Shown here: positions 9,071 through 42,153 of the stretch, piece after piece
How positions within the stretch are numbered: the stretch's first letter is position 1
Layout: each line of letters starts with the position of its first letter
Source of the DNA: Escherichia coli
Lineage (GTDB): Bacteria; Pseudomonadota; Gammaproteobacteria; Enterobacterales; Enterobacteriaceae
Assembly: GCF_030013595.1 (NCBI RefSeq)
Contig: NZ_CP122768.1
Length of the DNA stretch: 64,000 nucleotides
Strand: one strand, 5' to 3'
Made by a program: the position numbers and the translations under genes
The notes under the pieces: model-generated
Database searches by the model: none
What the model saw: only the letters and a program-made list of their open reading frames with translations
Told to the model about the DNA's origin: nothing

Positions 9071-10057
9071 TCACTTATTAAAATGCCCCCAACGAAAATA
9101 CATGTCACATGCCATCATAAAATCGTTATGCCAGAGGAATCGACAATGGAAAAAATAGTAAATTAAGCATGGTACATAGCAGAGTAAAAAATAGGCTTCA
9201 AACCAAATCCGCCATTCCACAAGCGTTGCCAATACCGACACCAGCGTAATCCACATCACTTCAATAACCAGCAATATGAATAACCGAAGCCAAAGCGGCT
9301 TGGCAAAAAAGGTCGACAACGCATTTTCACTGGAGAAAAACAGATCGATTTCCTGCAAAAAAAGCCTGCCCAGAAAAGCGTACCGCTTGGAGAAGCGCAG
9401 AAAAAACAGATTAATCGCCAACACTACGCCACAAAGAATGAGCAATGCAATTATCGATTTAAACGTTAACCACTGCCCCTCTGTCACAAAAGAATCACTG
9501 TTACGCAACGGGCTGATAGTAAGCAGGTTAACAACCGTTGAGATGCACACCGAAAGCAGCACATAGCGAGTCAGACTTTTATATTTTACCTTTTTCGCCA
9601 CTGAAATAGCGACCTGCTTGACATAACTGGTGCGGATCATCCGAAACAGCAGAAAGATAACCAACGGCCCAAGTAACGAAATCAGGAACAGCGCATATAA
9701 CGAGGGTAGAAGCTGGTATAGCCCCCAACTCATTGCACTCAACATGATTAGCGACAGAAATCCTGCCACCAGAGGTTGCGTAAGAAATAATTCTATTTTG
9801 TGGTTATGCTTTTTCTTAAACCACGAAAAATCGATATTCTTCGTGACGCATTTATAAGCCCAGTACGCCTTGAGATCAAAAATAAAATTATACAGCACCA
9901 GGGCCAGAATCCCACTAACGACACCAATATCCTCAGATGGAAAAGTAAACCCTGCATTTTTCCAATAAAAGCCTATCAGAATAAGTCCAATAGCATAAAT
10001 GTATATCAGATTTCGTTTATCCTGAAAGCGAATAAAAGTTAAATAATCAGGAATCAT
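9071..10057 (-). CDS. ycdU: Polytopic inner membrane protein YcdU (328 aa); terminal gene of the island operon
   Basis: Protein [60 protein letters not shown]...; start overlaps stop of upstream gene by 4 bp (ATGA). Confidence 0.8.
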
Positions 10058-10998
10058 TTGAATACCTTCGCATCACTAAATGCTTTACGACAATGCATAA
10101 CTCGTTGCTGATCCACGCCAGCAAAATCATTTAACATATTCCCCAAATAAGGCTTATTACTTATTTCAAGGAAAGCTACCGGGGTTGGCATATTCAGAAA
10201 TGTATCGAGAGATTCAGTCCATTTCACCGTGTGAGTTAAGTGTAATGAGAGATTTTCTTTGATAATTGACGGAGCGACCTCGCTTTTTGCTGTTACGTTC
10301 ATCAGAACCTGATGCTCTGGTGAAGCGATATCCAGTCCGGCAAGATAATCGCGCATTGCCTGAACGCCGTCTTCCATCAAACGCGTGTGCCAGGCACCGC
10401 TCACACCGAGTTTAACCGGTTCGTATCCAGCGGCCATCAGCAGCGTGGCAAATTCATTCAACGCAGCCTGCGTTCCCCCAATAACCTGCTGGCGCGGCGT
10501 GTTATCACAGCTAATATCCAGCGCAATGCCTGATTCCGTAATCATCGTCTGCAGTTGTTCGCGGTTGATGCCTTTAACCGCCAGCATTGCGCCTTTATTT
10601 CTCTGGCTTTCGTCATGCATCAGGCTGGCTCTGAAGTGAATCATGCCAAATAGCGTCTCAAGAGAAAGAGCTCCGGCGGCGTAGAGCGCACTGTATTCAC
10701 CAACGCTGTGTCCGCAGGAGCCCACAACCGTTAAATTCTCAAGACGCTCACGGCACAGGGTATAGAGCGTTACATTAATTGCGGTCACCGCCAGTTGTTG
10801 TACCGTCGTTTGAATAAGGCGATTCATCGGCCCTTTCTGACACAGGCGACGCAGGTTCAGTCCGGAAATATCGCTGGCACAATCCCAGATATGTTTTGTA
10901 CTGGCGTTGAGATCCCAAAGATCGCTGCCCATACCAATAACCGGATTACCCTGACCGGCAAAAAGCAGTACTGTCGGTTGTGAAGCATTATTCATCAT
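10054..10998 (-). CDS. Malonyl-CoA:ACP transacylase-like acyltransferase (FabD family, 314 aa); full-length counterpart of the locus called ymdE in K-12
   Basis: N-terminal [14 protein letters not shown] and [14 protein letters not shown] (FabD GQGxQ and GHSxG active-site motifs). Confidence 0.7.
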
Positions 10999-11008
10999 CT
11001 CTTTATCC

Positions 11009-40344: not shown

Positions 40345-40445
40345 CAGCATTGTTGCTCCTGGCGTTTGTCACCAGTTAATAGCATTCTGATTGCTTTGTT
40401 TATACTTTAAGACAATAAAATACCATTCTAATATAAGGTGATTCT

Positions 40446-41960
40446 TTATCTGTTTATATACCACTGATAAAACTCTGTCGCTTTCATTGGTTTTGCATAT
40501 AAGTATCCCTGAACTAATGTCACGTTATTATGAATAAGATATTCTGCCTGGTGAGGAGTACTGACACCTTCTGCAATCGTTATCAAATTTAGTCGATTAC
40601 TCAGCTTAATAATAATATCTAAAACTGGCGTTTCGTCTTCCGCTGTAGTGAGTGTGTCTATAAAGCTTTTATCTATTTTAAGATAATCAACAGACAACTT
40701 TTGTAGAAGGCCAAGTGAACAATATCCCGTGCCAAAATCATCAACTGCAAATTCATAGCCATGGATCCTTAATTCATTTATTTTCTGTAATGCAAGATCA
40801 GTATCTTCAACCAGATTGCGTTCGGTAATCTCAAGGACAATGTTAAATTTATCAGATATTGCATTTTTAATATGTAAAACATCAGCAGCAAAATCAGGAT
40901 GTGCAAGATGTTCCGCGGCAATATTTATCCCAAGGTGAAACGGTTTTTTCACTTTCCAGCTTTGTACATCCTGAATAATCAGTTCAAAGAGATGTTTAGT
41001 TAACGGTATTATTAAATTTTCCTCTTCTGCAGCGCGGATAAAAACTACCGGAGATATATTTTTACCATCTTCGCGTTGCCAGCGCATTAACGCTTCAACC
41101 CCCAGACACGCTTTGGTTGTCGTGTCGCACACTGGTTGATAATGCACAGAAAATTCTCCGGATGACATTCCTTTTTTAATTTCTTCTGCCAGCGACATTT
41201 TCCGTGACATCCAGTGCTGCCATAAGAAATAGAGAATAAAAGAAAGAATAATAGATAACGGCAAAATATAAAGCACATTGCTAATGATATAGGGATATAA
41301 CGAAATCATCGGCGTAGTAACTGTAAGACGAGCCTGACTGATCGCAGAATTAAAATCTCTTTTTAACATATATAACCTGTCATTATTATTTACACCACTA
41401 ATAATTGCAGGCCCTTCAGTAAAACGAAGAGAAAATGAATCATCATTCTCATCATCAAGAACATCCATTAGATCATAGATATATCGTGACTCTACAATAC
41501 TAAAAGCTGTCATATCATTCCCTATTGGCATAAGGAACACTATTGCTGTTTTACCTGGCACAAAACTTGTACCGCTAATTGATACTATACGTGATTCTTT
41601 ATTTTTATTGTGAAAGCTCGTACCGTAAACATCGTTAACATTCATTTTTTTGAAACCGCTAACTGAAGAACATATTTGGAAATTATTTTCTATAAGACCC
41701 GTTGTTCGAACATAGGGAGTCAATGCTCCGTTAACAATCAATTGTTCCAGGATATCTTTGCAGGGTTTCATCACCAGAATAGAAGTAAGCTTTGTCGTAT
41801 GTTTGACAATTTGCGTAACATTATCAAGCTGTTTTAACAGAATACCGGCGGTAATTGTCGTATCTCGATTCATTTGAAATATTGACATAGCAAACGATAG
41901 TAACACCCCCAGAATGCCTGGTATTATAATGAGTACAAACATTTTTTTGTTGAATACCAT
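40446..41960 (-). CDS. CSS-motif EAL-domain c-di-GMP phosphodiesterase
   Basis: Periplasmic domain with Cys-Ser-Ser motif (QICSSVSGF) between two TM segments; cytoplasmic EAL domain (EALMRW..., EITERN, DDFGTGYCSL, KIDKSFI). ORF extends to 42056; start chosen at MVFNKKMFVLIII. By context possibly the vmpA/pdeT-type gene described beside dgcT in EHEC (recalled, not verified). Confidence 0.8.
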   Translation of the reverse strand: MVFNKKMFVLIIIPGILGVLLSFAMSIFQMNRDTTITAGILLKQLDNVTQIVKHTTKLTSILVMKPCKDILEQLIVNGALTPYVRTTGLIENNFQICSSVSGFKKMNVNDVYGTSFHNKNKESRIVSISGTSFVPGKTAIVFLMPIGNDMTAFSIVESRYIYDLMDVLDDENDDSFSLRFTEGPAIISGVNNNDRLYMLKRDFNSAISQARLTVTTPMISLYPYIISNVLYILPLSIILSFILYFLWQHWMSRKMSLAEEIKKGMSSGEFSVHYQPVCDTTTKACLGVEALMRWQREDGKNISPVVFIRAAEEENLIIPLTKHLFELIIQDVQSWKVKKPFHLGINIAAEHLAHPDFAADVLHIKNAISDKFNIVLEITERNLVEDTDLALQKINELRIHGYEFAVDDFGTGYCSLGLLQKLSVDYLKIDKSFIDTLTTAEDETPVLDIIIKLSNRLNLITIAEGVSTPHQAEYLIHNNVTLVQGYLYAKPMKATEFYQWYINR

Positions 41961-42153
41961 ACATGTTTCCCCACGCATCAGGGTGATGCAACCTAAGAAA
42001 TTATAGTACAATTGCCAGTAAAAGCGGGTGATAGCAGACTGATCAATGATAAGCATTTAAGATCATATAGTACTATGATATTTCTGAAAATTGTTACGCA
42101 TGTCTGCGAATAGCTATTTAGCGCTTACCAAAATCACCCGCTAAAATGCCGCT

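Follow-up and report, generated by a model that had tools for sequence, protein, structure and literature searches.

O-island 47 at the serX-dgcT junction of a non-O157 Escherichia coli: a probable old replacement insertion that includes ycdU

We analysed a 64,000-nucleotide stretch of an Escherichia coli genome (assembly GCF_030013595.1, contig NZ_CP122768.1; hereafter the window, meaning the whole stretch), in which a 32-kb block lies between ycdU and dgcT in the order csgCAB/csgDEFG, ycdZYX, ghrA, serX, ycdU, block, dgcT, pgaABCD, phoH, efeUOB and putP/putA. The block is O-island 47 (OI-47, S-loop 71), an element already known from E. coli O157:H7; its host in this case is a non-O157 strain. 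In the account that we favour, and which we hold to be very probable, the block is an old, non-mobile replacement insertion of 33.25 kb that includes ycdU and was later lost repeatedly. Within it, a 20.3-kb operon of 17 genes runs from otpA to ycdU and combines a two-partner secretion (TPS) pair with genes predicted to serve the synthesis and export of a lipid.

Identity of the block with O-island 47 and its extent

The Sakai counterpart of OI-47, S-loop 71, covers ECs1272-1296, and OI-47 of EDL933 comprises 31,727 bp and the genes z1528-z1556 (PMC8565820). The block in the window agrees with this element in chromosomal position, between ycdU/ymdE and ycdT (dgcT) and close to the pga and csg genes, in its size relative to K-12, from which 31,746 bp are missing here, and in gene order. 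Comparison of O157:H7 strain NE1127 with window positions 8863-47643 gave a single collinear BLAST alignment of 38.8 kb at 97.5% identity, and the gene order is identical in the window, O157:H7 and TB06052. Since the alignment is collinear, the sizes match and the genes named in the literature on OI-47 are present (grvA, vmpA/pdeT, loc6, otpAB and fatty-acid-synthesis-like genes), we identify the block as OI-47. The resemblance to an adhesin/polyketide-type island of enterohaemorrhagic strains, which the preliminary description of this stretch had noted, was therefore correct. The window differs from the published element in that its carrier is not O157:H7 and that the loc6 tip gene and the SDR gene contain frameshifts. 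Gene calls were based on the RefSeq annotation of the nearest complete genome, that of the pig isolate HCP5S3_I2 (99.9% identity, 40 differences over 47.6 kb), on Pfam results for identical proteins and on NCBIfam scans, and all three sources confirm the gene content listed in that description. The block is a mosaic of the 17-gene operon, a 207-aa protein with the loc6 chaperone-usher operon, an SDR oxidoreductase, GrvA with a YqeJ-like partner, and the phosphodiesterase PdeT/VmpA.

The published limits of OI-47 were set against K-12 and so exclude ycdU and ymdE; definition by subtraction of K-12 hides the true extent of the element. Comparison of the junctions in ST131, L013 (a non-E. coli Escherichia genome that served as outgroup), TB06052 and the window, combined with BLAST breakpoints, places the whole replacement insertion, consisting of ycdU and OI-47, at positions 8938-42187 (33,250 bp). 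In the process 91 nt of ancestral sequence were displaced, among them the final 14 codons of dgcT. Its start lies 779 nt from serX and 61 nt past the last copy of the serX 3' end, and its right end sits inside the 3' end of dgcT (ycdT; 42154-43512, minus strand), the last 11 codons of which (42154-42187, including the stop codon) derive from the end of the island. The gene block that had been delimited beforehand at 10054-42056 is real, but its start takes in 344 bp that are kept by K-12 and its end falls 87 bp short. The left junction is identical in the window, O157:H7, TB06052 and the remnants in K-12 and O104, and the right junction is identical in the window, O157:H7 and TB06052.

The island is located downstream of the tRNA-Ser(GGA) gene serX (8072-8159, plus strand), which was called by ARAGORN and the Rfam tRNA family and is annotated in HCP5S3_I2. 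Between them is an RtT-like tandem array (8145-8937, plus strand), detected by TRF and a pattern search, with 4.4 units of 179 bp according to TRF, the last and partial unit abutting the island. Each unit opens with a tRNA 3'-end copy, carries a terminator-like hairpin and scores 42-43.1 bits against the Rfam RtT family, for which the gathering score is 45. An RtT-like array is also carried by the outgroup; the array is ancestral and lies outside the island. Its length varies, with a single partial unit of about 80 nt (less than half a unit) in TB06052 and two units in the RefSeq annotation of K-12-type genomes. O157:H7 NE1127 and O104:H4 carry, between serX and ycdU, a separate tyrosine-recombinase element with TOTE-like primase and Gp2-like genes, at positions 1-8704 of the NE1127 locus and 1-8524 of the O104:H4 locus. 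The element is missing from the window; its occurrence in those strains shows that serX is actively used for integration irrespective of OI-47.

No integrase, excisionase, transfer gene or insertion sequence (IS) was found in the block in either the annotation or the Pfam lists, and repeat searches detected no direct or inverted repeats bracketing it, in line with the first reading of the window, which had seen neither an integrase nor flanking direct repeats. All five copies of the tRNA 3' end are on the left side, none being present at the right end. A weak resemblance to the tRNA 3' end (CATCCCTCACAAC) was considered as a right-end att site and rejected, as it failed a search allowing 3 mismatches. 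Among the hallmarks of tRNA-associated islands, the block shows adjacency to a tRNA gene and has neither a recombinase nor tRNA-derived flanking repeats. Base composition varies along the block (operon 48.7% GC, loc6 47.9%, grvA and pdeT 34-36%). Two long, AT-rich intergenic regions, one between otpA and the divergent 207-aa/loc6 genes (29401-30790, 33.6% GC) and one upstream of grvA (38351-39026, 32.2% GC), match no Rfam family; inside the island as a whole, no Rfam family reached its gathering threshold, and promoter and terminator scans gave counts no higher than those for shuffled sequence.

Origin, exchange and loss of the block

A survey of presence and absence, which the preliminary description had suggested, was run over 5,426 complete genomes and found the TPS-lipid operon in 383, a remnant with IS3 in 2195 and an empty site in 1437. 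In ST131 (B2) and EC21, dgcT follows about 100 bp after serX, ycdU is absent and the dgcT allele is 9 nt longer. The outgroup L013, a separate GTDB species representative that is about 10% diverged on both flanks, has a serX-RtT-dgcT junction that is homologous base for base with that of ST131, including a 45-nt dgcT tail. The DgcT tail seen with the empty site (KEAEILINRKDDE-like, KEAE...KDD) occurs in at least three divergent dgcT lineages, and the RDVVNFCESP tail is found in one lineage only, that associated with the island or its remnants. Because a deletion in a carrier cannot recreate the 91 nt, or the 45-nt tail, that carriers do not have, the empty site is the ancestral state. The insertion is old, since the divergence of carriers inside the block is similar to that of the core flanks (the window and O157:H7 are 95-98.8% identical inside the island and 96.6-99% identical in the flanks), and single, since the junctions are common to carriers and remnants. 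The ancestral Escherichia arrangement would accordingly have been serX, RtT repeats and dgcT, into which one illegitimate insertion, replacing 91 nt, would have brought the block; from then on it would have behaved as an ordinary chromosomal allele, passed on by inheritance and reshuffled when its flanks recombined homologously.

Several points weigh against this account. The outgroup is a single genome, and the three locus states that were counted leave about 1,400 of the 5,426 genomes unclassified. A DgcT scan of genome contigs returned one Escherichia locus together with many unrelated GGDEF proteins; neither E. albertii nor E. fergusonii nor the representative of E. coli was among its results. 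Placing the gain in time relative to B2 depends on ST131 and on general background. Pseudocitrobacter, which is considered below, is at most a candidate donor of the block and could itself be a recipient. Finally, none of the 5,426 genomes combines an intact island with IS3 at position 42143, so that the steps of the deletion set out below are a reconstruction.

The preliminary description had viewed the block as ancestral DNA between a backbone ycdU and dgcT, lost in some lineages, rather than as a recent integrative element, which makes the island-free lineages, B2 included, the products of deletion. Loss of the block from K-12-type and O104-type genomes is clear, its divergence between lineages matches that of the core, integrase and att sites are missing, and its overall GC content of 46.1% is close to the 47.2% of the window. 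The statements of the description on loss in K-12 and on the missing integrase hold. Ancestry does not, given that the empty junction of ST131 is homologous to that of L013 and includes a dgcT tail wholly missing from carriers, that this tail recurs in divergent dgcT lineages, and that ycdU moves with the operon in other genera; we consider an ancestral block improbable.

A recent integrative island, one that a site-specific recombinase placed at serX and whose integrase was lost afterwards, is very unlikely. Like the serX-integrated elements of O157:H7 and O104:H4, which bear an integrase, the block is found directly downstream of serX and beside repeated copies of the tRNA 3' end. Unlike them it carries neither an integrase nor a repeat at its right end, which lies within a gene, and those elements are separate insertions between serX and the island. 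The absence of excisionase and transfer genes, the location of the right end in dgcT with replacement of ancestral DNA, and a divergence between carriers equal to that of the core also speak against recent integration. Least likely of all is the independent acquisition of similar blocks at a hot spot by O157:H7, the window strain and freshwater strains: the locus is a clear hot spot of recombination and insertion, and carriers differ by up to 10% in parts (window 38001-40000 is 89.8% identical to TB06052), but the junctions are the same in the window, O157:H7 and TB06052, on the left also in the K-12 and O104 remnants, and gene order is identical.

Under the favoured reading of an old insertion with later losses, K-12 is one of the lineages in which the block was lost. 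As stated in the preliminary description, K-12 has only a ymdE remnant and an IS element here: K-12-type genomes contain ycdU, a 357-nt FabD-like fragment (ymdE), IS3 and then dgcT. Alignment to K-12, also proposed there, shows that the block is not intact in that strain and that the segment 10398-42143 (31,746 bp) is missing, with IS3 in its place. The breakpoints fall between 10397 and 10398 and between 42143 and 42144, the latter 10 bp ahead of the dgcT stop codon, and ymdE corresponds to window positions 10054-10397 of the FabD-like gene. In O104:H4-type genomes, which make up 716 of the 2195 genomes with an IS3 junction, positions 10583-42143 are missing and the FabD-like fragment is kept to 10582. 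The remnant of the FabD-like gene is therefore 344 bp in K-12-type and 528 bp in O104-type genomes. The right IS3 junction (42143) is identical in both types and the left ends (10397 and 10582) are nested; the ends of IS3 adjoin ...GGCAC and AAATGCC in K-12-type genomes, and the 3-bp target duplication of a simple IS3 insertion is absent from both types. From the shared right junction, the nested left ends and the absence of a target duplication, we read the K-12 state as a secondary, IS3-linked loss. In the ancestry of K-12-type and O104-type strains, IS3 would have inserted between pdeT and dgcT; deletions adjacent to it would then have removed the rest of the block, leaving ycdU together with 344 or 528 bp of the FabD-like gene. 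A different decay variant is seen in HH35 (4523-6007 of its locus), where the residue of ycdU contains ISKpn26, and a 160-bp piece of ymdE (window 10236-10395) is fused directly to window position 42148, without IS3.

Carriers of the TPS-lipid operon are mostly O157:H7 or O55:H7. Among the rest are O169:H41 from pigs and strains isolated from chicken meat, from river water and from fresh water in Galapagos; the operon of an O169:H41 pig isolate is 99.3% identical to that of the window. Reviews describe OI-47 as exclusive to O157:H7, O55:H7 and O145:H28, a statement that is too narrow, since carriers also come from pigs, chicken meat, rivers and fresh water.

Alleles of the locus are also exchanged by homologous recombination, as two genomes show in which mosaic breakpoints fall exactly at the site of the island. 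EC21, which has an empty site, matches the window at 99.2-100% from dgcT to the right and at only 96.4-97.8% in the ghrA-serX region. In TBE6 the left flank is K-12-like, and at serX/RtT it passes into a dgcT-pga segment with 97% identity to the outgroup L013. The dgcT-pgaABC genes of TBE6 (7793-16205 of its locus) are only 78-88% identical to those of ordinary E. coli, and on this evidence we take the segment to be an interspecies import. The DgcT cluster that matches TBE6 (P0093) has 491 member sequences. On this reading, the locus would present a non-mobile island that was gained once, exchanged through recombination in its flanks and eroded by an insertion sequence.

The operon from otpA to ycdU

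All 17 genes are on the minus strand. The order is TpsA, TpsB, AcpS, ketoreductase, dehydratase, acyl carrier protein (ACP), GcvT-like protein, a fusion of ketosynthase (KS) and chain-length factor (CLF), KS-like protein, 317-aa protein, ABC ATPase, 218-aa protein, MacB/FtsX permease, LolA-like protein, 462-aa protein, FabD-like protein and YcdU. The complete order from TpsA to YcdU is kept in 6 of 6 contexts, namely E. coli and five other genera, with different flanking genes each time. The last gene, ycdU (9071-10057), encodes a polytopic membrane protein, as judged from its hydrophobic segments, and there is a 4-nt overlap between its start and the stop codon of the FabD-like gene. In Enterobacter, Mixta, Pseudocitrobacter, Aeromonas veronii and a genome labelled 'Neisseria sp.', the FabD-like gene is directly followed by the gene for a full-length YcdU homologue with 40-74% identity. 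Because of the 4-nt overlap, and because the homologues end the operon in all five of the other genera, gene order identifies ycdU as the last gene of the secretion-and-lipid operon and as part of the island; its earlier assignment to the backbone has to be abandoned. In K-12, ycdU and ymdE would then be the stranded 3' end of a deleted 17-gene operon; the two have been discussed as candidate mastitis-associated fitness or core genes (PMC4951805). HCP5S3_I2 has a 1-nt frameshift of its own in ycdU, at window position 9618, which may be a homopolymer sequencing error.

In Pseudocitrobacter sp. RIT415 and a related metagenome scaffold, the divergent 207-aa gene is also present beside the operon. 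The Pseudocitrobacter-type scaffold continues through loc6, the SDR gene, grvA and the YqeJ-like gene, without pdeT, at 73-85% nucleotide identity to the window, and the ycdU end of the operon is seen in Pseudocitrobacter L046. Most of the composite, to judge from these arrangements, existed outside E. coli. In Aeromonas veronii the 17-gene operon stands beside H-NS, AlpA, YfjJ-like and RadC-like genes and a second TpsB gene, which suggests that it is on a mobile island there.

The first two genes, otpA (25588-29400; Pfam TPS and Fil_haemagg, NCBIfam adhes_NPXG) and otpB (23880-25499; Pfam POTRA_2, POTRA_3 and ShlB), encode a TpsA with a TPS domain and, beside it, a TpsB with POTRA domains and a ShlB barrel, the arrangement of a two-partner (type Vb) secretion system. 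They are followed by genes for an AcpS phosphopantetheinyl transferase (23496-23864), a FabG-like ketoreductase (22721-23482), a FabZ/ApeI-like dehydratase (22169-22717), an ACP (21866-22147) and a GcvT-family aminomethyltransferase (20670-21830). The NCBIfam matches of the lipid-operon enzymes are all generic and under the curated cut-offs. The 852-aa KS-CLF fusion (18038-20596) matches Pfam ketoacyl-synt twice, and the ketosynthase set matches NCBIfam fabF (2.4e-134). Its N-terminal KS is intact (Cys162, His294, GHNIGAAG), and its C-terminal KS is without the Cys, like a chain-length factor. In the 407-aa KS-like protein (16810-18033) the Cys and one His are present and a Tyr takes the place of the second His. 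The 317-aa conserved cytoplasmic protein (15860-16813) has no match in Pfam, NCBIfam or PDB, and its AlphaFold2 model, made from six sequences, was not used (pLDDT 39.8); the idea that it is a degenerate ketosynthase found no support from hhalign.

The remaining genes encode a LolD-like ABC ATPase (15142-15849; Pfam ABC_tran, NCBIfam LolD below the cut-off), a secreted 218-aa protein with a signal peptide (14502-15158), a MacB/LolCE-type permease (13191-14501; Pfam MacB_PCD and FtsX, NCBIfam lolCE below the cut-off) and a periplasmic carrier of the LolA superfamily (12394-13182; PDB 3BUU with E = 1.5e-34, Pfam TP_0789-like). They also encode a 462-aa protein (11009-12397) with a signal peptide, predicted to form an outer-membrane beta-barrel of about 18 strands (AlphaFold2 pLDDT 89.9), for which Foldseek returned OprD/Occ, chitoporin and AlgE (E about 1e-12, TM about 0.5), and a FabD-like malonyl-CoA:ACP transacylase (10054-10998) with a GHSVG motif (Pfam Acyl_transf_1; NCBIfam fabD 1.6e-52, below the cut-off).

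This gene set suggests how the operon might work. The phosphopantetheinyl transferase would activate the dedicated ACP and the FabD-like enzyme would load malonate, after which the type II KS/CLF pair, the ketoreductase and the dehydratase would build a dedicated acyl or polyketide-like lipid. Genes for an enoyl reductase and a thioesterase are missing from the operon, and since a ketoreductase and a dehydratase are present without these, the product is more likely to be hydroxylated or unsaturated than a saturated fatty acid. The export components are predicted to span the whole envelope: the LolCDE-like ABC pump, the LolA-like carrier and the 18-strand barrel would pass the lipid outward, alongside the exoprotein OtpA secreted by OtpB. 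The strongest hint that OtpA and the lipid would act together is the TPS pair that heads the operon in six genera. We therefore propose, as a possibility that we would not yet call probable, that otpA to ycdU encode one conserved, horizontally moving pathway whose surface lipid works with OtpA as an anchor, a cofactor or an acyl donor. If so, this would be an undescribed kind of two-partner secretion that is coupled to its own lipid factory, of which ycdU and ymdE would be the fossil end in K-12. Against the proposal, the 317-aa, 218-aa, YcdU and GcvT-like proteins have no assigned role in it, and the product, the transcription of the operon as one unit and the link between OtpA and the lipid are all deduced from gene context.

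Aryl-polyene (APE) clusters are Gram-negative, type II polyketide synthase-like clusters with an aryl-activating adenylation enzyme, a thioesterase and an MMPL/RND exporter. The operon shares with them a dedicated ACP, a pair of KS and CLF-like proteins, a ketoreductase, an ApeI-like dehydratase, the lack of an enoyl reductase and a LolA-like carrier, the last of which suggests that the product is delivered to the outer membrane. However, an aryl-activating adenylation enzyme, a thioesterase, any glycosyl- or acyltransferase and an MMPL/RND exporter are missing; in their place are the LolCDE-like ABC pump, the 18-strand barrel, the GcvT-like enzyme, YcdU and the TPS pair. Of the parts of an APE cluster, the operon has only the KS/CLF, ketoreductase, dehydratase, ACP and LolA-like ones.

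The source study of the OtpAB two-partner secretion system is reportedly that of Choi et al. 2007. Literature searches by gene content or locus tags found nothing relevant on the lipid cluster. OtpAB corresponds to ECs1282-1283, and the accessible literature reports secretion for OtpAB of O157 and lists the function of OtpA as unknown (PMC5422565). The genes in the window are orthologous to ECs1282-1283 and have the same TPS-domain TpsA and POTRA/ShlB TpsB, but differ from the system as described in that, across six genera, 15 genes for lipid and export functions follow downstream of them. One preprint suggested a link of OtpAB to loc6; in Enterobacter and Mixta, unlike in that suggestion, the gene directly upstream of tpsA is not fimbrial. 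Conservation of the operon across genera could thus provide a testable lead on the function of OtpA.

Other modules of the island and the adjacent pga genes

In the setting of a biofilm locus (csg, dgcT, pga), the other modules of the island would contribute an adhesin as well as regulators that act on virulence, acid resistance and cyclic di-GMP (c-di-GMP). The 207-aa protein and the loc6 chaperone-usher operon occupy positions 30791-37414 on the plus strand, as assigned from the annotation and from Pfam on a homologous scaffold. The loc6 genes, known as ECs1276-1280, encode a major subunit, a chaperone, an usher, a 444-aa tip protein and a second chaperone, so that an usher, PapD-like chaperones and both major and tip subunits are found in one operon, as expected for a chaperone-usher system. 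In the window the tip gene is frameshifted by a one-base deletion in a run of C at 36544. The SDR oxidoreductase gene (37560-38350, minus strand) is likewise split, by a 1-nt deletion in a run of T at 37910. It had been described as a pseudogene belonging to the island but is intact in HCP5S3_I2, O157:H7 and TB06052. Both frameshifts may be homopolymer sequencing errors rather than signs of pseudogenes.

Further to the right, grvA (39027-39848, plus strand) encodes a ToxR-like membrane regulator, with weak NCBIfam CadC/HilA matches and Pfam Trans_reg_C in a homologue. GrvA is z1531, a ToxR-like regulator of the enterocyte effacement locus (LEE) and of acid resistance. Its 163-aa YqeJ-like membrane partner (39853-40344, plus strand) was recognised by Pfam YqeJ_C in a homologue. 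The gene pdeT (vmpA; 40446-42056, minus strand) encodes a CSS-domain EAL c-di-GMP phosphodiesterase (Pfam CSS-motif 3.4e-13, EAL 2e-63). Members of the PdeB/C/D/G/N/T group have a periplasmic CSS-motif domain between two transmembrane segments and a cytoplasmic EAL domain. The predicted domains of PdeT, a CSS-motif at residues 63-222 and an EAL domain at residues 291-523, fit this group.

Beyond dgcT, pgaB is interrupted in the window by an IS10 copy of 1,329 bp (47644-48972) flanked by a 9-bp target duplication (GGTCTGGTT); the IS10 copy is absent from HCP5S3_I2. Since this insertion disrupts pgaB, synthesis of poly-N-acetylglucosamine (PGA) is probably inactive in the window strain.

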